A DNA stretch of 24,000 nucleotides, taken from assembly GCF_021474685.1 (NCBI RefSeq), contig NZ_JAKEIT010000001.1:187915-211914 (forward strand). Reading direction: 5' to 3'. Shown in pieces: positions 6,842 through 16,923 of the stretch. This stretch comes from Tetragenococcus halophilus (lineage in GTDB: Bacteria; Bacillota; Bacilli; Lactobacillales; Enterococcaceae). A program made the position numbers and the translations under genes. The notes under the pieces were generated by a model that searched no databases, was not told the DNA's origin, and saw only the letters and a list, made by a program, of their open reading frames with translations. Positions within the stretch are counted from its first letter, which is position 1. The number at the start of each line of letters is the position of its first letter.

Positions 6842-8203
6842 TTAAAGAACGTGTATTAAACTGGTTGCGATACTGAAATAAAGCATTAAGCCTAAAGCAT
6901 CATTTATTGTGGTAATAAAAGGTCCACTAGCTACAGCTGGATCTACATGCAGCTTATCTGCAATCGCAGGAATAACAGCGCCCACTACAGTAGAAAAAGA
7001 TATAGTAAACCACAAAGAAATGCCAACAATAAATGCTAAAGTTACATTTTGATAAAAAATTGCTATTACTAAAAAGATAACAATCGCCGCGGCAATTCCT
7101 ATTAATATACCAGCACCAAACTCTTTTCTGATCGTCTTCCAAAGACTTTGTTTTTCATCTTTTTCTACATTTAAATTTCGTACAGAAACTGCCAATGACT
7201 GCGTGCCTACATTGCCTGCTGTATCCATCATCACAGGAATAAATGCGGCGAGTAACACAACTGATTCTAATGTTTCTTCAAAAGAACTGATCAATCCACC
7301 ATTAAGCATACCAAGAAAAATCAAAATAACAATCCAAGGTGCACGTTCTTTAGCTGTTTGTAGCGCGCTTTCTTCCTTAGGTTTATCACTGCGACGAATT
7401 GCCGCAATATCTCTAAAGTCTTCTGTAACCTCATTTTCGAGTATATCCATAACATCATCCACGGTAACAATACCTATCATAGTATCATTATCTTCAACCA
7501 CCGGTGCTGCTAATAAATCGTAATCTTGGATTATTCGTGCAACTTCTTCTTGGTCCATGTCAACTGGAACAGAAACCACTTGCCTAGACATAACATTTTG
7601 CATGATTTCATTTTCCGGTGCCAAAATCAAATTACGTAAAGACAAGACGCCCACTAAATCAGCTTGATTATCCAGTACATAAATATAGTAAATTGTTTCT
7701 GCTTTATTTCCTATTTCTCGAAGAAAAGCAATCACTTCGCTTGCTTTTTGATTCTGATTAACTGAAACGAATTCTTTCGTCATTATCGACCCAGCAGTTT
7801 CAAACTGATAGGATAACAACTCTTCTACTCTTAAACGTTTTTTTTCATGCATCAAGCCCAATGGATAACCTTGCTCTATATTAGAAGACTGTTTTAAAAA
7901 CTTCACCACATCATCTGTAGGCATAGTGTTAAATAATTTTGTTAAAAATGCTTTGGGGAAATAATTAACAACATACTCTTGATCTTCAATAGACATCCAT
8001 TCAAAAAGATCTGAAAATTCTTCCGGGGTCAAAAAATTTGCGATCTTTTGTTTTTTTTCGGGATATAATAGATGAAATACCTCATGTTGATCTCGGTCAT
8101 GCAAGCGTAAAAATAACTTACGAAATGATTTACGATCATTTTTCTTTGCAGCGCGATAAATTGCGTCATAGTATTGGTTTTTATTTAACTTAAGTTTTTC
8201 CAT
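6842..8203 (-). CDS. mgtE: Magnesium transporter MgtE
   Basis: 453 aa. MgtE N-domain, tandem CBS region, and C-terminal 5-TM domain with DTAGNVGTQS and PFITTINDALG motifs. GGAGGAAT RBS. Confidence 0.95.
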   Translation of the reverse strand: MEKLKLNKNQYYDAIYRAAKKNDRKSFRKLFLRLHDRDQHEVFHLLYPEKKQKIANFLTPEEFSDLFEWMSIEDQEYVVNYFPKAFLTKLFNTMPTDDVVKFLKQSSNIEQGYPLGLMHEKKRLRVEELLSYQFETAGSIMTKEFVSVNQNQKASEVIAFLREIGNKAETIYYIYVLDNQADLVGVLSLRNLILAPENEIMQNVMSRQVVSVPVDMDQEEVARIIQDYDLLAAPVVEDNDTMIGIVTVDDVMDILENEVTEDFRDIAAIRRSDKPKEESALQTAKERAPWIVILIFLGMLNGGLISSFEETLESVVLLAAFIPVMMDTAGNVGTQSLAVSVRNLNVEKDEKQSLWKTIRKEFGAGILIGIAAAIVIFLVIAIFYQNVTLAFIVGISLWFTISFSTVVGAVIPAIADKLHVDPAVASGPFITTINDALGLMLYFSIATSLIHVL

Positions 8204-8309: not shown

Positions 8310-9065
8310 TCACATAAATCATAACCACCCTTCAAAAGGGTGGTTTGCTCTGGGGCTATAAGCCCCCAATACTAGCCAGCGTCTCAAGGCGCTGGCTTTC
8401 ACTTTGTTCAAGCCACACTGGTTTTGTCGCTTTTGCTACCTCTCAAGAGGTGTTTTTATCACTCTCTAACCCTTAAAAGGGTCTGCATATTCTCGAACAC
8501 TTAGTTTATCTAAGGCCATATCATGTTTTTCTTGCTCTTGAATATATTTCTTGATGGTTGCCTCATTAAGACCCACTGTGCTCACATAATAACCTTCTGC
8601 CCAAAAATGACGATTCCCAAATTTGTACTTCAAATTGGCATGTTTATCAAACATCATCATGGCGCTTTTTCCTTTTAAATACCCCATAAAGCTAGAAATA
8701 CTTATCTTCGGTGGTATACTTACGAGCAAGTGAACATGATCGGGCATCATATGTCCTTCTAGGATTTCTACACCTTTATAACTGCACAATCTTTTGATAA
8801 TCTCTTGTAGACTTGCTCTGTATTGATTATAAACAATTTTTCTTCTATACTTGGGGGTGAATACAATATGGTATTTGCATAACCATTTTGTATGGGCTAA
8901 ACTATTTGCTTTGTTAGCCAACTGAATCTCTTCCTTTCATTACCATGTAGCCTGAACAACTACATTGTAACGCTAGTGAAGAGATTTTTTTAGTATAACT
9001 TTTTCCTTTCCACCCGCATAGCGGGTGGTTTTTTGTTTCGCACGCTACGCGAGCTCAACCCGGTC
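8310..9065 (-). mobile_element. IS200-type insertion sequence (IS200/IS605 family, tnpA only); boundaries approximate
   Basis: A Y1-transposase gene is flanked by subterminal hairpins sharing the AACCACCC arm: CCACCCGC-ATA-GCGGGTGG (9011..9029, left end) and ACCACCCTT-CAAA-AGGGTGGT (8323..8345, right end). Three more hairpins lie at 8350..8450. There are no terminal inverted repeats, as expected for this family. About 750 bp, typical of IS200. Confidence 0.8.
8466..8921 (-). CDS. tnpA: IS200/IS605-family Y1 (HUH) transposase TnpA
   Basis: 151 aa, TTG start. HUH motif PDHVHLLVSIPP. Catalytic-Tyr helix ATIKKYIQEQE. N-terminus AHTKWLCKYHIVFTPKYRRK is typical of IS200 TnpA. Confidence 0.95.
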   Translation of the reverse strand: MANKANSLAHTKWLCKYHIVFTPKYRRKIVYNQYRASLQEIIKRLCSYKGVEILEGHMMPDHVHLLVSIPPKISISSFMGYLKGKSAMMMFDKHANLKYKFGNRHFWAEGYYVSTVGLNEATIKKYIQEQEKHDMALDKLSVREYADPFKG

Positions 9066-9074
9066 TAAAGACTT

Positions 9075-9295
9075 AATAAAAAACACGCTTCTAAGAGCGT
9101 GTTTACCTTACGATATTGTATATATTTGCAAAGCACACCTCTTCGTTGAGTTTTGGCTCAATACAGCCTAGGGATTTAACCCAGCTACGTTAAAAACTCC
9201 TTAGGTCGGACATTTTTGTTAACCACGTTGGCATCTTTCGATATTTCCGGGCAGTAGCATTCCTCTGTATAGTAACCTCACCTAACAGGCTAATT
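9075..9295 (-). promoter_or_regulatory. M-box (ykoK leader) Mg2+ riboswitch with intrinsic terminator
   Basis: The minus strand reads GUUAGGUGAGG..CUACUGCCC..AAAGAUGCCAACGUGGUUAACA..CCUAAGGAGUUUUUAACGUAGCUGG..GGCUGUAUUGAGCCAAAACUCAACGA. This is colinear with the B. subtilis mgtE M-box (GUUAGGUGAGGCU..CUGCUGCCC..AAAGACGCUAAUGGGUCAACAG..AUAAGGUGAUUUUUAAUGCAGCUGG..GCCAUACAGUGCUAAAGCUCUACGA). The terminator is AAACACGCT/AGCGTGTTT (9081..9104) plus a U-run. Confidence 0.9.
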
Positions 9296-9311
9296 TTATT
9301 TTACCGGCCCC

Positions 9312-9340
9312 AATATAACCTTTATTTATAGTTATGTCAA
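9312..9340 (-). promoter_or_regulatory. Sigma-A promoter driving the M-box leader
   Basis: Minus strand TTGACA (9340..9335), 17-nt spacer, TATATT (9317..9312), about 15 nt upstream of the aptamer. Confidence 0.7.
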
Positions 9341-9391
9341 CGATAGAAGTGTAAAGTTGTACTAAACTTTCACTTATTTAGTATATTTTGC

Positions 9392-9428
9392 AAAAAAGGC
9401 TGTTTCCTTGTCGTAAAACAGCCTTTTT
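9392..9428. terminator. Bidirectional intrinsic terminator closing the opp-tldR-gRNA transcription unit
   Basis: 8-bp stem GGCTGTTT (9398..9405) / AAACAGCC (9416..9423), flanked by A6 (9392..9397) and T5 (9424..9428). Confidence 0.85.
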
Positions 9429-9618
9429 ATGGTTTTTATAATTAGTGAACAACATTCCTAGAAACAAAAATCTTAAAGATTTTTTCTATACCCTAGGCGA
9501 TCCCTGGCGTTCCTTCCAGTTCCTAACGATTTTAACTACTAGTTATCTGCTGGCCCAACTGCTCAATAGCAAAGCATTTGTCTTCACTTTCTTTTACGTT
9601 AGGAGTAACAAATGCCAG
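9429..9618 (-). ncRNA. Candidate omega-RNA-like guide RNA of the TnpB-derived protein (scaffold overlapping the ORF 3' end plus 3' guide segment)
   Basis: The position matches TnpB omega-RNAs: it starts inside the 3' end of the ORF and runs downstream. TGGTATAAT extended -10 at 9633..9625. Stem GCATTTGT/ACAAATGC (9615..9608 with 9581..9574). Long imperfect hairpin at 9497..9457. Then 28 nt AAUGUUGUUCACUAAUUAUAAAAACCAU (9456..9429), apparently unstructured (no self-complementarity seen by eye), directly before the terminator. No covariance-model or expression evidence is available. Confidence 0.4.
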
Positions 9619-10530
9619 CTGTTTATTATACCAACTTACTTTATACTGTATTTTCTTTAAAAGATGTTGCCAATCAGATTCCGAAAATTTTGCATTTTCA
9701 CTAAATTTCGGTTGCTTTTCTAGATAAATATGATCATAGTCTCTAACCAAATAATAAGTTAATTGATTAATATAATCTTTTTTTTGGTTGCCCATTGTCA
9801 TATGCAATTTCTGGACTTTTCTTTTTTGTTTTTGATAATTTTTTGCCTGACACAATAACACTTTTCTCTTTTTAGCTAACTTTGCTCGAAATTCCAATCT
9901 TTTCTTAGCTTTTTTCAATTGATAGTAAGAATTATCTTTACAGTTAAGAAAAACATCAGTAGATGACATTTGAACTAAGTTTTCAGGGCAATAAGCAATT
10001 CCTATAGACTTGCCTGTTTTTGATAAAGGCACCACGTTTTCTAAGCAAAGAATTGAAACAAAAAACAACTGATTATTTTTAGCTGAAATCGTCGCCGACT
10101 TTATTTCACCTAAAATTTCCCTGTGCAAGTTTACCTTTACTAGAGACTTAAGTTTAGGTAATTTCAATTCTTTTCCGACAAAATAAATCGTATGTTTTTG
10201 ATTATTTGTGGTATAAGATTGCCAACTACTTTTTTTCGATTTCCATTTAGGATAACCCGCTCTTTTACTAAAGTAATTTTTAAACGCTCGATCTAAATTA
10301 CGCTGGGCATTAGCTAAAGCTAGACTATCCGTTTGTTTTAAAAACGGATAGTCTTTTTTTAACTGAGCAGGAGTCATTCGCGTCTCATAATCTCCCTCTT
10401 GTAGGGATTTTTTTCGGGCATACAACAACTGATTATAGGTAAAACGTACACAACCGAAAGTCTGTATAAAATATTGTATTTGTTCTTCATTTGGATAAAT
10501 ACGAAATTTATAAGCTTTTAATACTTTCAC
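9532..10530 (-). CDS. tldR: TnpB (IS605 OrfB)-derived protein, RuvC-inactivated and C-terminally truncated; TldR-like RNA-guided DNA-binding protein candidate
   Basis: The N-terminus MKVLKAYKFRIYPNEEQIQYFIQTFGCVRFTYNQ is the canonical TnpB start. Other conserved blocks: GYPKWKSKK, KLPKL, IKSATIS..FFVSI. At the RuvC-I position the sequence is GIAYC instead of GIDLG (Ala179, GCT at 9996..9994). Glu271 is kept (YLEKQ). The protein ends at 332 aa, just after the KVSWYNKQL block. It has no CxxC..CxxC zinc finger and no RuvC-III Asp. GTG start with AAGGGGGA RBS, 66 nt after oppF, with no terminator in between. Confidence 0.7.
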   Translation of the reverse strand: MKVLKAYKFRIYPNEEQIQYFIQTFGCVRFTYNQLLYARKKSLQEGDYETRMTPAQLKKDYPFLKQTDSLALANAQRNLDRAFKNYFSKRAGYPKWKSKKSSWQSYTTNNQKHTIYFVGKELKLPKLKSLVKVNLHREILGEIKSATISAKNNQLFFVSILCLENVVPLSKTGKSIGIAYCPENLVQMSSTDVFLNCKDNSYYQLKKAKKRLEFRAKLAKKRKVLLCQAKNYQKQKRKVQKLHMTMGNQKKDYINQLTYYLVRDYDHIYLEKQPKFSENAKFSESDWQHLLKKIQYKVSWYNKQLAFVTPNVKESEDKCFAIEQLGQQITSS

Positions 10531-10596: not shown

Positions 10597-11556
10597 TTAG
10601 ACAGCCTGCTTTTTTTTTGCAGCTTTTTTATTTGCAAGTTTTTCTTGGTATTGTGTTTTCTCTTCTTCAGTAGCATAAACATAATGCCCTGACTCAATTT
10701 CTACCATTTCACGTGCTGTATCCGGATTATCTTGTTCTCCTGTATACTTAATACGTGTTCTTGTCTGTTCATACTCTGGATCAGGCATAGGGATAGCCGA
10801 AAGTAAACTTTCAGTGTAAGGATGAACACCATAATAGTAGATATCATCGCTTGTTCCTACTTCTAACAATTTCCCATCATGCATCACACCAATTCGATCA
10901 CTGATATGTTTAACCATGGACAAATCATGGGCAATAAATAAGTAAGTCAAATTATGTTCTTTTTGCAAGTCTTGTAACAAGTTAACTACTTGGGCTTGGA
11001 TAGATACATCCAATGCCGAAATAGGCTCATCACAAATAATAAATCTAGGATCTACTGCTAAAGCGCGCGCAACACCAATCCGTTGCCGCTGTCCTCCAGA
11101 AAATTCGTGCGGATAACGCGTTGCATGATTCGGATTTAACCCCACAGTTCTCAATAGCTCGTCTACTCGTTCATTACGTTCTTTTTCTGATTTTGCCAAG
11201 CTATTAATATCAATACCTTCAGCAATAATATCTTGAACTTTCATTCTTCCATTCAAAGATGCGTAAGGGTCTTGGAAAATCATCTGTACATCACGACGAA
11301 AAGTATTCATCTCTTTTTTTCCATGTAATTTCATTACATCTTTACCGTCAAATTCAACAGTTCCCCCAGTTGCTTGATTCAAACGAATAATCGTACGACC
11401 TGTAGTGGATTTACCACTACCGGACTCTCCCACTAAACCAAATGTCTCGCCTTCATAGATATGGAAAGTAATGTCATCGACTGCTCTAACTTCATTTTTA
11501 CTGCCTTTATTAAAGTATTGTTTTAAGTTTTTTACATCTACTAAAACTTTCTTCAT
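10597..11556 (-). CDS. oppF: Oligopeptide ABC transporter ATP-binding protein OppF
   Basis: Walker A GESGSGKST, signature FSGGQRQR, Walker B FIICDEP, and the oligopeptide/dipeptide C-terminal extension. The start overlaps the oppD stop (ATGA). Confidence 0.9.
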   Translation of the reverse strand: MKKVLVDVKNLKQYFNKGSKNEVRAVDDITFHIYEGETFGLVGESGSGKSTTGRTIIRLNQATGGTVEFDGKDVMKLHGKKEMNTFRRDVQMIFQDPYASLNGRMKVQDIIAEGIDINSLAKSEKERNERVDELLRTVGLNPNHATRYPHEFSGGQRQRIGVARALAVDPRFIICDEPISALDVSIQAQVVNLLQDLQKEHNLTYLFIAHDLSMVKHISDRIGVMHDGKLLEVGTSDDIYYYGVHPYTESLLSAIPMPDPEYEQTRTRIKYTGEQDNPDTAREMVEIESGHYVYATEEEKTQYQEKLANKKAAKKKQAV

Positions 11557-12617
11557 TTACTTTCCTCCGTTTCCGGCTGTTGTTTCTTTTTGAACGCTTC
11601 CCAACGCATCAAAATTTCTTTCGGCGGTTCTACCTTCGGCGCTTGTGGCGCTAATAACCAGGTAGCTGCTTTATGAGTTTTAGATAATTCAAAAAAGGGC
11701 GGTTGTTTTTGGGTATCGATTTTCATCGCATATTCATTTCTAGGATAAAAAGCATCCCCGGTTGGTGGTTCTAACAAATCCGGCGGCGTCCCTGGTATAG
11801 CATATAAACGATCATCTATACCTTCCAAAGTCGGCATAGAACCTAAAAGCCCCCAAGTATATGGATGTTGCGGATTATAAAAGATTTCAGCAGCTGTCCC
11901 GATTTCTACGATTTTACCTGCATACATAACAGCTACACGATCTGCTACATTCGCTACTACTCCCAAATCGTGGGTAATAAAAATAATGGAAGAATTGACT
12001 TTTTGTTGGATATCTTTCAATAACTCTAAGATCTGTGCTTGAATTGTCACATCCAAAGCAGTCGTTGGTTCATCTGCTATTAATATTTCCGGGTAACAAA
12101 TTAAAGCAACTGCAATGACGATCCGTTGACGTTGGCCACCAGAAAATTGATGGGGATAATTCTTTAATCGTTTCTTCGCATTAGGTATCCCTACAAGTTC
12201 TAATAATTCTAAAGCTTTTTGTAAAGCATCTTTTTTCGATACTTTGGTATGTTTTAATAATGATTCAGCGACTTGTTTTCCAATCTTCATTGTTGGATCC
12301 AATGAAGTCATGGGATCTTGGAAAATCATCGAGATATCTTTGCCTCGAATTTTTTGCATTCGTTTTTCCGAATTTTTTAAAATATCTTCATCATTAAATA
12401 AAATTTGGCCATTTTCAACAACTGCATTTTCAGCTAATAGACCCATGATGCTTCGAGTCGTTACTGATTTTCCACTGCCTGATTCACCAACGATTGCTAA
12501 CGTTTCACCTTGATATAAATCAAAACTTACATCACGGATCGCTTGAACCTTTCCAGCATAGGTGGTAAATGAAATTTCTAAATCTTTGACTTCTAAAACT
12601 TTTTTCACCATAATCAC
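11553..12617 (-). CDS. oppD: Oligopeptide ABC transporter ATP-binding protein OppD
   Basis: Walker A GESGSGKSV, signature FSGGQRQR, Walker B ILIADEP, and the HPYTWGLL motif of the OppD C-terminal domain. Overlaps the oppC stop. Confidence 0.9.
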   Translation of the reverse strand: MIMVKKVLEVKDLEISFTTYAGKVQAIRDVSFDLYQGETLAIVGESGSGKSVTTRSIMGLLAENAVVENGQILFNDEDILKNSEKRMQKIRGKDISMIFQDPMTSLDPTMKIGKQVAESLLKHTKVSKKDALQKALELLELVGIPNAKKRLKNYPHQFSGGQRQRIVIAVALICYPEILIADEPTTALDVTIQAQILELLKDIQQKVNSSIIFITHDLGVVANVADRVAVMYAGKIVEIGTAAEIFYNPQHPYTWGLLGSMPTLEGIDDRLYAIPGTPPDLLEPPTGDAFYPRNEYAMKIDTQKQPPFFELSKTHKAATWLLAPQAPKVEPPKEILMRWEAFKKKQQPETEESK

Positions 12618-13657
12618 TCCTTCATCTTCGGATCAAACGCATCTCGTAAGCCATCTGCCAGTAAATTAAATCCAATCATAATGACAGAAAGAACTACTGC
12701 AGGTATAGCCATTTGATAAGGCAAGAATAAGAAAGTCTTATATCCTTCATTGAGCAATGTCCCAAGAGATGCAGTCGGAGGTGTTAATCCAATTCCGATA
12801 AAACTCAAGAAGGCTTCAAAGAAAATGGCTTCTGGAATACTAAACATCATTTGAATAATAATCACACTAGAGATATTAGGTAAAATATGTTTAAAAGCAA
12901 TTTTAGTCCTACTTTCTCCTAAAGTTGTTGCCGCTAAAACAAATTCCTGATCTTTTAATTTAAGTGTCTGGGCTCGAGCAATCCTGGCCATCGGTATCCA
13001 ATTGGTAATGGCCATTGCCGCAACAATTGAGAAAATCCCAGGATTAAACACTACTAACATCAAAATCATTACAACAAGGTTAGGAATTCCGGCTAAAACT
13101 TCGATGACTCGCTGCATATAGTTATCCACTCTGCCACCTAATAGACCCGAAATGACGCCATAACTGACCCCGAAGAGAATATCTAGCGCTGCTGCAATAA
13201 AAGCGATCATTAATGAAATTCGTACACCCATAAATAAACGGCTTAATAAATCACGCCCTAGACCATCTGTTCCTAAATAAAAATGAACATCTTCTGGTAC
13301 ATCAGCAGCTTCATAACGATCCACCATTTCTCCGCCAACTTCAGATACCCCATTTAAACCATTAATGTCAATTCCGGGTATCTTAGGCGGTAAATTAATA
13401 TAACTAGAATTTTGCTCGGTTGGATCATGCGGTGTAGCAAAGATAGTTACGACTGATATGAGCAGCACAATGATAAGAAAAATAGAAGAAAAAACAGCCG
13501 CTTTATTTTTCTTTAGCCGACGCCATGAATCTTGTAAAAAATTTAGCGAAGGGGCTGTAATAGCTTCACGTTCCACTTTAGTACTTTTTTCTAAAGGCTC
13601 AAATTCAGAAGCTGGAATTTGTGTGATTTGGTCATTTGTATAATTTTTATCTTCCAT
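12614..13657 (-). CDS. oppC: Oligopeptide ABC transporter permease OppC
   Basis: 347 aa. N-terminal OppC-type extension and 6-TM BPD-transporter core. 1-nt overlap with oppB. Confidence 0.88.
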   Translation of the reverse strand: MEDKNYTNDQITQIPASEFEPLEKSTKVEREAITAPSLNFLQDSWRRLKKNKAAVFSSIFLIIVLLISVVTIFATPHDPTEQNSSYINLPPKIPGIDINGLNGVSEVGGEMVDRYEAADVPEDVHFYLGTDGLGRDLLSRLFMGVRISLMIAFIAAALDILFGVSYGVISGLLGGRVDNYMQRVIEVLAGIPNLVVMILMLVVFNPGIFSIVAAMAITNWIPMARIARAQTLKLKDQEFVLAATTLGESRTKIAFKHILPNISSVIIIQMMFSIPEAIFFEAFLSFIGIGLTPPTASLGTLLNEGYKTFLFLPYQMAIPAVVLSVIMIGFNLLADGLRDAFDPKMKE

Positions 13658-14598
13658 TATCCACGACTCCCTTCTGAAATACGGATACGAGGATCAACAA
13701 TACCATATAATACGTCAACAACAAAGATAATCGACACTAACATCGTAGAATAAAGAATAGTTACTGCCATGATTGTCGGATAATCATTGGTCATAATTGA
13801 TTTAACAAATTGCTCTCCAATACCTGGTATAGCAAAAATATTTTCAACAACAAGTGATCCAGTCATTAGCGCAACTGCTAATGGTCCTAGTAAAGTCAAA
13901 ATTGGGATCAAGCTATTACGTAAACCGTGTTTAAACGCTCTCTCCCAGCGACTTAGACCTTTTGATTTCGCTAGTTCAACTTGATCACTATGTAACACTT
14001 CGACCATTTCAGTACGTATAAAACGAGCTGAATCCGCTAGCGGTGACATTGCTAGTGCTAAAGTAGGTAAGATCGTATAGGCAAAACTATCCCATCTTGC
14101 AATCGGTAGAATTTCTAATTTAATCGCAAATACGTATTGCAATAATACAGCAAACACAAAGTTAGGAATAGAACGTCCTAAAATAGCAACCAAGGTACTT
14201 AAAGTATCCACCCAAGTATTTTGCTTCATTGCAGAAATCGTTCCTAAAACAATTCCAAAGATCGTTCCAAGTCCAATGGCTTGAATCCCTAATTGAAGGG
14301 ATGGACCAATACGTCCACCTAATAAACTAGATACAGCTTGGTTTTTAAATTGGAAAGAAATCCCAAAGTCACCTTGCATAATATTTACCAAATACTCTCC
14401 ATATTGTACGATCATCGGTTGATCTAGTCCCATTTGTTCATTTAATAAGGCAATTTGTTCTGGACTTAATCTTTCAGCGTTAGTATAAGGTGTTCCTGGC
14501 AAAAACTGCATCATGAAAAACGTGATGGTTGCAATCAACCACAATGTAATTGCCATGAAAAACACACGTTGCAATAAATATTTTATAAAATCGTTCAC
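13657..14598 (-). CDS. oppB: Oligopeptide ABC transporter permease OppB
   Basis: 313 aa. GTG start behind an AGGAGG RBS. Typical OppB/DppB permease, ending IVDPRIR. Confidence 0.88.
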   Translation of the reverse strand: MNDFIKYLLQRVFFMAITLWLIATITFFMMQFLPGTPYTNAERLSPEQIALLNEQMGLDQPMIVQYGEYLVNIMQGDFGISFQFKNQAVSSLLGGRIGPSLQLGIQAIGLGTIFGIVLGTISAMKQNTWVDTLSTLVAILGRSIPNFVFAVLLQYVFAIKLEILPIARWDSFAYTILPTLALAMSPLADSARFIRTEMVEVLHSDQVELAKSKGLSRWERAFKHGLRNSLIPILTLLGPLAVALMTGSLVVENIFAIPGIGEQFVKSIMTNDYPTIMAVTILYSTMLVSIIFVVDVLYGIVDPRIRISEGSRG

Positions 14599-14687
14599 GT
14601 TTTTTCCTCCTATTTCTTTGACTTCTAAACAATATTTTTATACATTAAATCTATCTTTATTTTTATAGCTAAGAGAGGTACCTCCTT

Positions 14688-15023
14688 ATGAGATTTAAAA
14701 AAAGTTCTTGGATCATCAGCCTAACAAGTTTGTTAGTTGGTATATTACTCACGATCATCCAAAAAGATTTTTCCCTTACTGCTTTATCAGATAATTTATT
14801 TTTATTTACTTTATTTTTTCTGATCATTGGCGGTTTTCTCTGGGTATTTTCTTCTGGTTTTTTTGATAATTTTCAACGATCTTTCAAGAAAAAAAATAAA
14901 AAAACAAAAACAGAAGGTATGAAATTGTCAGAAGTCGGTCGTTCCAGCTTTCGTTTCTGGCTAGAACCTGCCGGAATACTACTTTTATTAAGCCTGTTGA
15001 CTTTACTATTGGCAATTTTCTAA
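14688..15023 (+). CDS. Small membrane protein (possibly DUF3899-like), opposite strand, between oppA and oppB
   Basis: 111 aa. Three hydrophobic segments separated by a basic KKKNKKTK loop. GAGAGG RBS. Followed by the terminator at 15025..15076. The family name is tentative and from memory. Confidence 0.55.
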   Translation: MRFKKSSWIISLTSLLVGILLTIIQKDFSLTALSDNLFLFTLFFLIIGGFLWVFSSGFFDNFQRSFKKKNKKTKTEGMKLSEVGRSSFRFWLEPAGILLLLSLLTLLLAIF

Positions 15024-15024
15024 C

Positions 15025-15076
15025 AATAAAGACTGAGACACTGCAATAAAGCAGTTAGTTGTCTCAGTCTATTTTT
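15025..15076. terminator. Bidirectional terminator (end of oppA and end of the small plus-strand gene)
   Basis: 11-bp stem AGACTGAGACA (15030..15040) / TGTCTCAGTCT (15060..15070), with an inner CTGC/GCAG stem and T/A runs on both sides. Confidence 0.85.
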
Positions 15077-15097
15077 ATCTTCAAGTTAGCCTACAAA

Positions 15098-16762
15098 CTA
15101 TTCGTCGATAGTTACCCATTTGTAATCATACTGTGCACCTGTAGGATGGGTGACAAGACCGTTTACACGATCTGCTCTTAAGTGTGCTTCAGCATTTTGA
15201 TACAATGGAACTACCCCTTGTTCTTCCATAATGATATTTTCAGCTTCTACCAAATTATCCCAACGTGCTTCAGGATCATTGGCATTTTCATTCGTTGCTT
15301 CATCAATTTGTTGATCGTAATCTTCATTACTGTAATGCCCATGGTTATTTGACGTATCCGTTTGGAATAAGTCAAGGAAAGCACTTGGATCAGCATAGTC
15401 AGCACCCCAGCCACTTAGAGCCATGTCAAAATCTCCAGAAGTTGAACGATCTAAACGAACAGAAAAAGGTACCGGACTTAATGAAACACTTACTCCATCC
15501 AAGCTATCTTGAATAGATTCTTGTAAGAACTCTTGCGCTCTTCTAGAATTATCCGTATCATCTGCCAATAGATCTATTTCTAACGAATCTTCACCTAGTT
15601 CTTCTTGGGCTTGTTCCCAATACTCTTGCGCTTGTTCTTGATCATATTCTATCTGGCTACCTGCATCTTCAGTGAAATCATCTCCGGTTTCTGGATTTTC
15701 ACTCATATCACTTGGTACTAAGCCAGAAGGTTCAATCGAACCGTCAGCTAAAACGGAGTTAACTAAAGCTTCACGATCAATAGAGTAAGAAATCGCTTTA
15801 CGGAAGTTTTCGTTTGCAAATGGTGAATCTTCATCCTCTTGATTCATCTCCATATAGAAGGTAGATGCTTGAGGAACTGTGAGATAATCAGGATCATTGG
15901 CCATTTGCTGTGCAAGTTCGCCACTTAATGTAATCTCATCTGCTTGCCCATCTTGGAATAAGTTCAAAGCAGTTGAAGCTTCTTTAACAACATTCACATT
16001 CACTCGATCTAAAGAAACATTGTCTGCATCCCAGTAATCTTCATTTTTATCATAAGCCCATTCAGTATCTGATCCAGGACCGTCAAAATCAGCTAAAACA
16101 AATGGACCATTGTAAACCATATTATCACTTGTCTGTGCGTAATCATCGCCATTTTCTTCTACGACTTCTTCATTTTGCGGGAAGAAGACTGGAAAGGCCA
16201 ATAAATTGTCAAAATATTCTGTCGGCCTTTCTAAGGTAATTTCCAATTCATATTCATCAGTGGCTTCAATTCCTAGTTCATCCAGATCTGCATCGCCGTC
16301 CATTACAGCTTGCGCGTTTTCAACCGGTTCATAAATATACGCAAACTCTGAAGCTGTTTCTGGATCAACCGTACGTTGCCAACCATAAACATAATCATCA
16401 GCTGTTACTGGATCACCATTTGACCAAGTTGCGTCTTCGCGCAATTGAACAGTATAGGTTAACCCGTCCTCTGAGACTTCTGCTTCTTCGGCAGCACCAG
16501 CTGGTTGAGGTTCATCATTTTCATCTAAACGATACATCCCTTCATAAACATTGTTTAAGGCCGAAAAACTAACTGTATCTGTAGCCTGTGATAAATCCGC
16601 TGTTGGCATTTCCTGTCTTTCAATAAAAGTATACTCATTTCCTGAAGTACCAGAAGCACCTTCGCCCCCACCTTCACTTGAATCTTGTGTTTGTCCTGTC
16701 GTACAACCAGCAAGTACCAAGGAACACACCGCAAATAAACTATAAACATATTTCTTTTTCAC
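15098..16762 (-). CDS. oppA: Oligopeptide-binding lipoprotein OppA (ABC family-5 substrate-binding protein)
   Basis: I place the start at GTG 16762..16760 behind AAAGGAG, not at the track's 16804. This gives VKKKYVYSLFAVCSLVLAGC with lipobox LAGC. The mature protein is about 530 aa and very acidic, with the family-5 SBP layout. Confidence 0.88.
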   Translation of the reverse strand: MKKKYVYSLFAVCSLVLAGCTTGQTQDSSEGGGEGASGTSGNEYTFIERQEMPTADLSQATDTVSFSALNNVYEGMYRLDENDEPQPAGAAEEAEVSEDGLTYTVQLREDATWSNGDPVTADDYVYGWQRTVDPETASEFAYIYEPVENAQAVMDGDADLDELGIEATDEYELEITLERPTEYFDNLLAFPVFFPQNEEVVEENGDDYAQTSDNMVYNGPFVLADFDGPGSDTEWAYDKNEDYWDADNVSLDRVNVNVVKEASTALNLFQDGQADEITLSGELAQQMANDPDYLTVPQASTFYMEMNQEDEDSPFANENFRKAISYSIDREALVNSVLADGSIEPSGLVPSDMSENPETGDDFTEDAGSQIEYDQEQAQEYWEQAQEELGEDSLEIDLLADDTDNSRRAQEFLQESIQDSLDGVSVSLSPVPFSVRLDRSTSGDFDMALSGWGADYADPSAFLDLFQTDTSNNHGHYSNEDYDQQIDEATNENANDPEARWDNLVEAENIIMEEQGVVPLYQNAEAHLRADRVNGLVTHPTGAQYDYKWVTIDE

Positions 16763-16923
16763 ACCACTTGCTCCTTTTTTATTGGAAATTTTCAGAATTA
16801 TCACCTTTTTCTGAAGTTATATAAGATTGTAATTATTAATTATTAAAAAAGCAAGAGAAAATTGAAAATAAAATAAGGAAATACTTATCATTTATTTGAA
16901 AAGCGCTATTTATCAGCTTTTTT

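Follow-up and report, generated by a model that had tools for sequence, protein, structure and literature searches.

A TnpB-like protein and its predicted guide RNA beside oppF in Tetragenococcus halophilus, with oppA as the predicted target

The window, by which we mean the whole 24-kb stretch of Tetragenococcus halophilus DNA that was analysed, carries a group of opp genes followed by tldR, which starts 66 nt past oppF (Table 1). The genes from oppB to oppF gave Pfam matches to BPD_transp_1 (twice, one of them with OppC_N), ABC_tran with oligo_HPY, and ABC_tran. The order oppA-DUF3899-oppBCDF-tldR recurs in 12 loci of Enterococcus and Tetragenococcus, as well as in the V583 operon as published, and the NUDIX, metG and ATPase genes keep their syntenic positions across genera. 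A Y1 tnpA gene (8466..8921) is found 610 nt downstream, beyond the gRNA terminator and an M-box riboswitch. It lies inside a separate 756-bp insertion (8318..9073) that is missing from two other T. halophilus genomes. Since tnpA belongs to this separate insertion, we rejected the idea that tldR and tnpA make up a single IS605 element. The separate insertion and the conserved synteny suggest that tldR and its gRNA form a stable chromosomal locus outside a transposon.

Table 1. Features of the tldR-opp region (window coordinates).
Feature	Position	Strand	Remarks
opp genes	10597..16762	- (DUF3899 gene on the opposite strand)	oppA, DUF3899, oppB, oppC, oppD, oppF; Pfam
Predicted promoter-like element of oppA	16826..16854	-	TTGCTT 16854..16849, 17 nt, TACAAT 16831..16826; identified by reading
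Predicted DNA target	16834..16847	-	TAM TTTAA 16847..16843 and TAATTAATA 16842..16834
oppA	15098..16762	-	Pfam SBP_bac_5; probable GTG start at 16762
DUF3899 gene	14688..15023	opposite to the opp genes	Pfam DUF3899
tldR	9532..10530	-	332-aa nuclease-dead TnpB homologue, identical to WP_234771384.1 (Tetragenococcus halophilus)
Predicted gRNA scaffold	9445..9528	-	core GAACUGG...CAC at 9523..9445; mature 5' end probably at ~9525-9528
Stem 1	9504..9519	-	CUGG 9519..9516 / CCAG 9507..9504; 8-nt loop holds pseudoknot strand GAAC 9512..9509
Stem 2, long imperfect hairpin	9457..9497	-	base CCUAGG/UCUAGG nearly invariant
Pseudoknot 3' strand GUUC	9447..9450	-	pairs with GAAC 9512..9509
Predicted guide UAAUUAUAAAA	9434..9444	-	length of 9-11 nt taken from E. 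faecalis data
Intrinsic terminator of the tldR-gRNA transcript	9392..9428	-	hairpin, then T-run

TldR proteins are TnpB-like, nuclease-dead repressors. The protein encoded in the window gave Pfam matches to HTH_OrfB_IS605 and OrfB_IS605 (3e-17 and 2.5e-9) and none to a zinc-ribbon domain, and its residues 5-315 align to structures of ISDra2 TnpB (PDB 8H1J/8EXA) with an E-value of 7e-30. In the alignment D191 of the ISDra2 RuvC site is replaced by A179 and E278 is kept as E271. The third RuvC Asp is lost along with the zinc finger by C-terminal truncation, the protein stopping at residue 332, before the position of D361. This A/E/- pattern is that of the published Tos entry. Sequence identity is 70% to Tos-TldR and 41.5% to Efa1TldR, and the protein is an allele, 88% identical, of the catalogued T. 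halophilus flandriensis protein. The Efa1 TAM and heteroduplex residues S74, L75, N79, Q81, N114, Q116, L4, L167, Y307 and W311 all have conserved counterparts. The TAM-reading equivalents are S69, L70, N74, Q76, N109 and Q111, and Efa1 V82 corresponds to R77. The roles of these residues were drawn from preprint text, because a PDB sequence search with TldR matched TnpB structures and no TldR entry.

A first-pass annotation, made from the letters of the window, had proposed a TnpB-family guide RNA 3' of this TnpB-like ORF, and we agree: the proposal accords with a covariance model, with a sub-threshold match to Ref70 and with published TldR constructs. It had suggested a covariance-model scan. 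Rfam has no family for TnpB omega-RNAs or TldR gRNAs; its only relevant match was RF02841, Ref70 (Enterococcus sRNA 70; E. faecalis), with 40.3 bits (E 5.3e-5), below the gathering threshold of 115 bits. A new model built from 14 other loci/species (including Tos and Eca), with the window sequence left out, matched at 9430..9534 with 115 bits (E 5e-26) and had no other strong match in the window. Ref70 covers the same RNA, in that stem 1, stem 2 and the ...CUAAUUAU 3' end align; its Rfam entry carries no link to TldR, and the RNA in the window is too divergent for membership. It is extremely improbable that the RNA is a free-standing, trans-acting sRNA, a Ref70 homologue that works by RNA-RNA pairing independently of the neighbouring protein. 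Its resemblance to a catalogued Enterococcus sRNA and its own terminator would suit such a molecule. However, both RIP-seq and cryo-EM structures show TldR bound to the homologue in E. faecalis, the RNA always lies immediately 3' of tldR, and the Ref70 score is far under the threshold.

Reading the RNA as a TldR guide RNA, we aligned it across 15 species. In the scaffold 97.1% of cells were paired and 6 pairs had compensatory changes, compared with 34.9-63.2% and at most 2 such pairs in slid-register controls. This covariation supports two stems and a pseudoknot. Stem 1 (96.7% of cells paired) shows one compensatory G-C to A-U change, in the T. osmophilus-type sequence, and stem 2 has three apical pairs with compensatory changes. 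The pseudoknot is paired in 100% of cells, and two of its four pairs changed on both sides (GAAC/GUUC, GAGC/GCUC, GGGC/GUCC); the Efa1 counterpart is GGAC/GUCC. Published cryo-EM work describes a pseudoknot in the scaffold, which we infer to be represented here by GUUC 9450..9447 and GAAC 9512..9509. The first-pass annotation had expected a cross-genome alignment to reveal compensatory changes in the scaffold and a 3' segment that varies with its target. The former were seen in the stems and the pseudoknot; the start of the guide was invariant in 15 loci.

The extent of the RNA differs from that first proposal, which had a ~200-nt omega-RNA with its own extended -10 (9633..9625), an overlap of ~100 nt with the ORF, a 16-nt guide AAUGUUGUUCACUAAU and a target outside the window. 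An overlap with the 3' end of tnpB is indeed found in canonical TnpB omega-RNAs, and the sequence strings on which the proposal was built are all present on the minus strand: TGGTATAAT (9633..9625), the two arms of an 8-bp stem, GCATTTGT (9615..9608) and ACAAATGC (9581..9574), which is perfect in the window, the stop codon TAA (9534..9532), the hairpin 9497..9457, and a 28-nt segment (9456..9429) followed by a hairpin and T-run. TGGTATAAT also occurs in three of the loci compared (L001, L002 and L008). However, it consists of the codons of W300-Y301-N302, its TGGTAT encoding the conserved W300-Y301. W300 corresponds to W311 of Efa1, which is conserved and stacks on the heteroduplex, and in other genera the three codons read TGGTATGGN or TGGCATGGA and form no -10. 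The stem within the ORF is 68.8% paired in nine relatives, against 65.6% when the register is slid by 2, a gap too small to set it apart. The conserved scaffold does not extend for ~160 nt back to 9633; it is ~80 nt long, and its start, at ~9523-9528, lies beyond the stop codon. We place its mature 5' end at ~9525-9528 because the Efa1 scaffold (97-100 nt) starts 2-5 nt before GAACUG, past the stop codon. The ~160 nt had also been called structure-rich. Compared with shuffled sequences, neither the complete 205-nt region (z = -0.34) nor its 116-nt 3' part (z = -0.01) has a more stable fold; statistically, therefore, the single sequence is not rich in structure.

The proposed guide AAUGUUGUUCACUAAU (9456..9441) turned out to be 12 nt of scaffold joined to the first 4 nt of the real guide. 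It includes the invariant ...UCAC end of the scaffold and the 3' strand of the pseudoknot, and it has no match of 11 nt or more in the window. The 28-nt segment, described as apparently unstructured, is a composite: 9456..9445 is a scaffold linker that contains the pseudoknot GUUC, and only the part from 9444 onwards is guide. Taken with the ORF evidence, this makes the longer omega-RNA very improbable as an account of the locus. For the guide RNA of TldR, homology to published constructs sets the start of the guide at 9444 (UAAUUAUAA...); in these constructs engineered guides were swapped in directly after ...CAC. The window reads CAC|TAATTAT at 9447..9438, and the sequence after ...CAC opens with TAATTAT in 15 of 15 homologous loci from two genera at one syntenic site, as do the published predicted guides of Efa1, Eca, Emu, Efa2 and Tos. 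Published oppF-TldR guides are effective at 9-11 nt with a seed of ~6 nt; the longest published convention, 20 nt, would reach 9425.

The arrangement of a guide 3' of the scaffold and then a terminator was borne out by the published TldR constructs and by folding. The terminator hairpin (9428..9393) has a predicted energy of -17 kcal/mol (z = -5.4), and none of 200 shuffled sequences folded as well. It was not called by the terminator scan (predicted loop of 8 nt), and folding confirmed the hairpin. Among 13 distinct readable homologous loci, 10 have a strong hairpin of differing sequence, usually with a T-run after it, that lies 16-22 nt past the start of the guide.

The predicted target of the guide lies ~85 nt upstream of the probable oppA start and follows the published description of TldR targets, a TTTAA TAM plus an intact 6-nt seed. 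Guide positions 1-6 and 9 match, as does position 10 if the guide is 11 nt long. TTTAATAATTA (TTTAA plus the TAATTA seed, 16847..16837) occurs once in the 24-kb window (0.19 copies expected), and in every opp-bearing relative the same site precedes the oppA start by 69-92 nt; the comparison covered the window and flanks of ~17-19 kb in the relatives. The first-pass annotation had suggested that the target might lie outside the window or that the scaffold/guide boundary might be misplaced. It missed this site because it required matches of at least 12 nt and used the wrong guide. A search of both strands of the window with 8-12-mers of the tail (9470..9425) likewise returned neither a match of at least 12 nt nor an 8-9-mer flanked by TTTAW; the target was found only once homology had fixed the guide boundary and the published 6-nt seed rule was used.

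TAM and target fill the spacer of a promoter-like element whose pattern, TTGMTT-17-TAMAAT, is kept in the loci of both Tetragenococcus and Enterococcus. From reading and conservation, this element is the predicted oppA promoter. A consensus promoter scan called an overlapping TTTTCA-18-AATAAT and not TTGCTT-17-TACAAT, because the -35 hexamer of the latter matches the consensus at only 3 of 6 positions. Nor did the scan call TGGTATAAT, and what we say about both elements therefore rests on reading and conservation.

Protein and RNA homology, covariation, the broken active site, conserved synteny and the conserved TAM and seed site together lead us to interpret the region 9445..9528 (minus strand), with the guide at its 3' end, as the gRNA of an oppF-associated TldR of T. 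halophilus, itself a predicted repressor of oppA, with a probability of about 0.87. OppF-associated TldRs have been described by Wiegand et al. 2023/24 (bioRxiv 10.1101/2023.11.30.569447) and Xiao et al. 2026 (bioRxiv 10.64898/2026.09.22.753285). The TldR-gRNA system is already known, since the same species stands in the published TldR catalogue, and no new kind of system is added here. In relatives (Efa1, V583; Tos in E. coli) RNA binding, target DNA binding and repression of oppA without cleavage are known, and RIP-seq, ChIP-seq, reporter repression and cryo-EM have been published for TldR-gRNA. By analogy with this work, TldR of T. halophilus would bind its RNA and the target DNA and repress oppA in a similar way, and the length of the guide and its 3' trimming would be similar too.

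In the mechanism that we propose, tldR and the RNA probably share a transcript, most likely forming the end of the opp operon, with termination at 9428..9393. TldR would bind and protect the ~80-nt scaffold (~9528..9445: stem 1, pseudoknot and stem 2) with its short 3' guide from 9444. The complex would read the TAM TTTAA through the conserved REC/WED residues while the guide seed pairs with TAATTA (16842..16837). Because the site sits upstream of oppA in the spacer that separates the -35-like from the -10-like hexamer, a bound complex would stand in the way of RNA polymerase, and the gene for the substrate-binding protein would be repressed. The target DNA would stay uncut by TldR, because the RuvC triad is broken.

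Guide positions 7-8 are mismatched to the target in all six Tetragenococcus loci. A search of the protein collection returned only 45-130-aa fragments of TldR for several T. halophilus genomes; the system may therefore be dispensable in the species. In E. faecalis overexpression of tldR-gRNA gave ~40-fold repression of oppA, and its deletion had no detectable effect under laboratory conditions. The mismatches, the many T. halophilus records that consist of fragments only and the lack of a deletion phenotype would also suit a vestigial system, in which RNA and protein are produced, drift has left the guide with no more than a 6-nt seed match, repression of oppA is no longer effective and the locus is on the way to decay. 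So would the faster evolution of tldR relative to the neighbouring opp genes (dN/dS 0.12-0.15 versus 0.00-0.06). We regard decay as quite unlikely, however. An intact ORF is present both here and in L001, L002, L003, L008 and L009, and it is under purifying selection (dN/dS 0.12-0.20), and by manual count the scaffold core differs from that of L001 at ~4 of 78 positions while dS is ~0.45. TAM, seed, guide start and TAM-reading residues are invariant in two genera, and the specificity published from ChIP-seq is that of a TAM and a ~6-nt seed.

Returning to the guide of a TldR repressor, we note that conservation of its positions 7-16 (UAAAAACCAU here; consensus ..RAWWAACCR) extends over two genera without a match to the oppA site. 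Because of this, the 3' segment may have an undescribed role, such as recognition of a second, longer target at another place in the genome, setting of a 3' processing point ahead of the terminator or formation of an auto-inhibitory stem-loop, or TldR may act regulon-wide with 11-bp specificity rather than on a single gene; we consider these ideas rather unlikely. An auto-inhibitory guide stem-loop has been seen in the binary complex of Efa1.

Among the closest known systems is the oppF-associated TldR-gRNA of E. faecalis (Efa1TldR / V583). Both have the same order of oppA, antisense DUF3899 gene, oppBCDF, tldR, gRNA and terminator, and the proteins are alike in the substituted first RuvC Asp, the truncated C-terminus and the conserved TAM-reading residues. 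The RNAs have the scaffold motifs GAACUG...CAGGGAUCGCCUAGG...UUCUAGGAA...CAC and the guide start UAAUUAU in common, and each system has its target, a predicted one in the window, upstream of oppA beside a TTTAA TAM. The window scaffold is ~17 nt shorter than that of Efa1 (core of 78 nt versus 95 nt), and contiguous guide-target pairing is limited to the 6-bp seed, compared with 9 pairs in E. faecalis. The target lies in the predicted promoter spacer, as reported for E. faecium, whereas that of V583 is downstream of the mapped TSS. Closer in sequence is Tos-TldR (T. osmophilus JCM 31126), which was cloned and tested in the Wiegand et al. dataset (10.1101/2023.11.30.569447); T. halophilus subsp. 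flandriensis NBRC 114546, T. koreensis and T. solitarius are also listed there. The TldRs catalogued for Tetragenococcus are orthologous and syntenic to the one in the window. By manual count the Tos scaffold core differs from ours at 5 of 78 positions, and the predicted guides are TAATTATAAAGAACCG (Tos) and TAATTATAAAAACCAT (window).

The canonical TnpBs of IS200/IS605 elements such as ISDra2 belong to the same protein fold family. Their RNA too is encoded on the 3' side of the gene and ends in the guide, and both canonical TnpB and TldR depend on a 5' TAM to recognise their targets. Canonical TnpB has an intact RuvC triad and a zinc finger, both missing in the TldR of the window, and its RNA-guided activity is cleavage, whereas that of TldR would be binding. 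The guide of a canonical omega-RNA is set by the right-end junction of the transposon and varies; the guide in the window is fixed and conserved across genera, and its locus probably lacks transposon ends. The fliC-associated TldRs of Enterobacteriaceae prophages are also nuclease-dead TnpB derivatives that repress promoters under gRNA guidance. They differ in forming an independent clade, in having fliC as accessory gene and a 16-nt guide, in their prophage location and in their TAM.

The practical value of these data is a correct annotation of the pair as a probable domesticated RNA-guided repressor aimed at the Opp peptide-binding subunit. T. halophilus is a halophile of protein-rich fermentations, in which control of peptide uptake is physiologically relevant. 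With a 6-bp seed and conserved mismatches at positions 7-8, the guide-target combination of Tetragenococcus offers a natural test of minimal TldR pairing.

The tldR gene and the guide RNA (gRNA) encoded behind it constitute the published oppF-associated TldR system. Its TnpB-like nuclease-dead repressors are encoded after oppF, chiefly in enterococci, and use gRNAs with a scaffold of ∼ 100 nt and a 9–11 nt guide to address a target upstream of oppA that is flanked by a TTTAA or TTTAT TAM (Wiegand et al., bioRxiv 10.1101/2023.11.30.569447). The supplementary tables of that study contain TldRs of T. halophilus subsp. flandriensis NBRC 114546 (our locus L001), T. koreensis, T. solitarius and T. 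osmophilus, the last of which (Tos) was cloned and tested. The element thus belongs to a published family in whose catalogue T. halophilus is represented. In the window, oppF, oppD, oppC and oppB lie 5′ of tldR on the same strand, then an opposite-strand DUF3899 gene and oppA; a terminator, a promoter-like site, an M-box riboswitch (125.6 bits) and mgtE lie on the 3′ side. This order, with a NUDIX regulator, metG and a cation ATPase farther along, recurs in Tetragenococcus and Enterococcus genomes; the locus is a stable chromosomal one and not a mobile element. The predicted promoter directly past the gRNA terminator tightly bounds the tldR–gRNA unit at its 3′ side. An IS200-type insertion parts the M-box riboswitch (9131..9296) from mgtE (start at 8203), the gene expected to be under riboswitch control. 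The tnpA of this element was rejected as a partner of the TnpB-like gene, because it is a separate insertion missing from L001 and L002, two other T. halophilus genomes that are uninterrupted at this point.

The tldR product is identical to WP_234771384.1 (Tetragenococcus halophilus). Alignment with ISDra2 TnpB shows catalytic D191 replaced by A179 and E278 retained as E271, and the protein ends ahead of the third Asp and the zinc finger; the published table scores the RuvC residues of Tos as A/E/-, the same pattern. In an alignment with six published TldRs, identity was 70% to Tos and 41.5% to Efa1 of E. faecalis. The protein keeps every Efa1 residue with a reported role in reading the TAM (S74, L75, N79, Q81, N114 and Q116) or holding the heteroduplex (L4, L167, Y307 and W311). 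Judged by dN/dS against five Tetragenococcus orthologues, tldR (0.12–0.20) is under purifying selection, weaker than that on oppD, oppF and oppA (0.00–0.06). In the 90%-identity cluster of this TldR, members named T. halophilus or lying on 2.5–2.6-Mb contigs include fragments of 48–130 aa, which suggests disruption of tldR in several strains of the species.

The first-pass annotation correctly recognized a TnpB-family guide RNA in raw sequence, as the TldR homology and a covariance model (CM) match confirm. The strings it quoted are all present on the minus strand: TGGTATAAT at 9633..9625, an 8-bp complementary pair (9615..9608 with 9581..9574), the stop codon (9534..9532), a long imperfect hairpin (9497..9457), a 28-nt segment at 9456..9429 and the terminator hairpin. 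Rfam holds no TldR or omega-RNA family; its Enterococcus sRNA Ref70 gives a sub-threshold match to 9433..9525 (40 bits, E 5e-5). A CM built from the region 3′ of tldR in 14 other species, from an alignment that excluded the window, gave one match, 9430..9534 on the minus strand (115 bits, E 5e-26; runner-up 10 bits). About 160 nt of the region had been called structure-rich, but neither its whole 205 nt (z −0.34) nor the 116-nt 3′ part (z −0.01) is more stable than shuffled sequence. With single-sequence folding at chance level, the case for structure has to be a comparative one. When 15 species are aligned, 97.1% of cells are paired in the proposed structure and six pairs carry compensatory changes, versus 34.9–63.2% and at most two pairs in registers slid by 1–3 columns, a contrast inflated because the pseudoknot was derived from the sequences on which it was scored; 0/500 shuffles match the observed values. 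The pseudoknot covaries (GAAC/GUUC, GAGC/GCUC, GGGC/GUCC), reads GGAC/GUCC in the Efa1 scaffold and agrees with that stated in published TldR work.

The ORF-internal 8-bp stem is perfect in the window. In nine relatives, 68.8% of its cells are paired, compared with 65.6% in a register slid by 2, and it falls outside the mature RNA of relatives. The experimentally defined Efa1 scaffold spans 97–100 nt and begins only 2–5 nt before GAACUG; by homology, the mature 5′ end would lie at about 9525–9528, just past the stop codon, so that a scaffold reaching into the ORF is over-extended. TGGTATAAT comprises codons W300-Y301-N302 of tldR, which read TGGTATGGN or TGGCATGGA in other genera, and Efa1 W311, the counterpart of W300, stacks on the first guide–target base pair. 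Its extended −10 match is explained by protein constraint, and the promoter proposed there is unsupported.

Published expression constructs join the engineered guide directly after ...CAC, and TAATTAT opens every native guide predicted for Efa1, Ero, Eca, Emu, Efa2 and Tos; together these place the guide start at 9444. Of the guide first suggested (9456..9441), 12 nt are scaffold and the remaining 4 nt open the actual guide. Of 13 distinct readable loci, 10 have a strong hairpin 16–22 nt past the start of the guide, with unrelated sequences and usually a T-run next; termination at this place is a conserved feature. With so short a mature guide, 3′ trimming or protection is implied, in line with the proposal of the TldR authors. 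Across two genera (loci L001–L016), guide positions 12–15 (AACC) and A/T-rich 9–11 are conserved (window 9429..9436); positions 9–15 are so without pairing to the oppA target.

Features of the tldR–gRNA locus and the oppA upstream region (window coordinates)
Feature	Position	Strand	Basis or remark
tldR ORF, 332 aa	9532..10530	minus	HTH_OrfB_IS605 and OrfB_IS605 domains of TnpB, without zinc ribbon
Conserved scaffold core, 78 nt	GAACUGG (9523) to ...CAC (9445)	minus	cross-species alignment
Stem 1	CUGG 9519..9516 with CCAG 9507..9504	minus	15-species alignment
Stem 2 (long hairpin of the first-pass annotation)	9497..9457	minus	15-species alignment
Pseudoknot	stem-1 loop GAAC 9512..9509 with GUUC 9450..9447	minus	covariation
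Guide, 9 nt: UAAUUAUAA	9444..9436	minus	homology to published constructs
Guide, 11 nt: UAAUUAUAAAA	9444..9434	minus	homology to published constructs
Terminator hairpin	3′ of gRNA	minus	−17 kcal/mol, z −5.4, far above shuffled stability
Near-consensus promoter TTGACA, 17 nt, TATATT (11/12)	9312..9340	minus	predicted to drive M-box/mgtE leader
IS200-type element, 756 bp	8318..9073 (tnpA ORF 8466..8921)	minus	Y1 transposase only (Pfam Y1_Tnp, 2e-41)
Predicted target, TTTAA + TAATTAATA	16847..16843 + 16842..16834	oppA sense strand	sole site in window
Inverted repeat TTCAGAAAA...N...TTCTGAAAAT	16787..16820	minus	between predicted oppA promoter and start codon

The target had been thought perhaps to lie outside the window; the rule taken from published work (exact TTTAA plus an intact 6-nt seed), applied with the corrected guide, instead finds exactly one site within it, upstream of oppA. 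The 11-mer TTTAATAATTA occurs once against 0.19 expected per window. The probable oppA start, a GTG at 16762 behind an AAGGAG, lies 85 nt downstream of the site and is predicted to yield a 554 aa product like the orthologues. The site occupies the 17 nt that separate TTGCTT (16854..16849) from TACAAT (16831..16826), a predicted promoter that a consensus promoter scan did not call; the arrangement TTGMTT, T, TTTAA, TAATTA..., TAMAAT recurs upstream of oppA in all relatives with the opp operon. The reported E. faecium target likewise overlaps the promoter, whereas that of E. faecalis V583 was mapped to the 5′-UTR. Guide and target match at positions 1–6 and 9 (plus 10 in the 11-nt guide), the mismatches at 7–8 being conserved in all six Tetragenococcus loci, and binding here is plausible. 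Such minimal pairing, the many fragmentary tldR protein copies among T. halophilus records and the lack of phenotype of a tldR–gRNA deletion in E. faecalis would fit the main rival reading, a system vestigial in T. halophilus; we consider this improbable given the purifying selection on tldR and the near-invariant scaffold.

Documented here are the homology, the disrupted active site, retention of the TAM-reading residues, covariation in the RNA and a conserved TAM and seed site. We put at nearly nine in ten the probability that this is the functional gRNA of an oppF-associated TldR, directing nuclease-free binding and repression in the oppA promoter region. Binding of RNA and DNA, guide length and repression are extrapolated from relatives; by analogy with these, the gRNA would guide TldR to the oppA promoter region, where binding without cleavage would repress the gene for the substrate-binding subunit of the permease. 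Overexpression in E. faecalis V583 repressed oppA ∼ 40-fold (Xiao et al., bioRxiv 10.64898/2026.09.22.753285).

Nearly all relatives retain the inverted repeat downstream of the predicted oppA promoter. The right half of the repeat is a weak match to the CodY box AATTTTCWGAAAATT (3 mismatches); the repeat suggests an additional, protein-based level of control over oppA beside the TldR site. Tandem SBP_bac_5 (oppA-like) genes lie upstream of oppB at two homologous loci, with TTTAA and seed before both genes in L013 (811-826, 2776-2791) and before the first only in L010 (1018-1033); the oppA paralogue under TldR control may differ between species. In L015 (Enterococcus olivae-like; tldR 9001-10002), which lacks the entire opp operon, the oppA-type promoter with TTTAA followed by TAATTATTT (8876-8896) precedes tldR by ∼ 125 nt; TldR there would be autoregulatory, or else an orphan.
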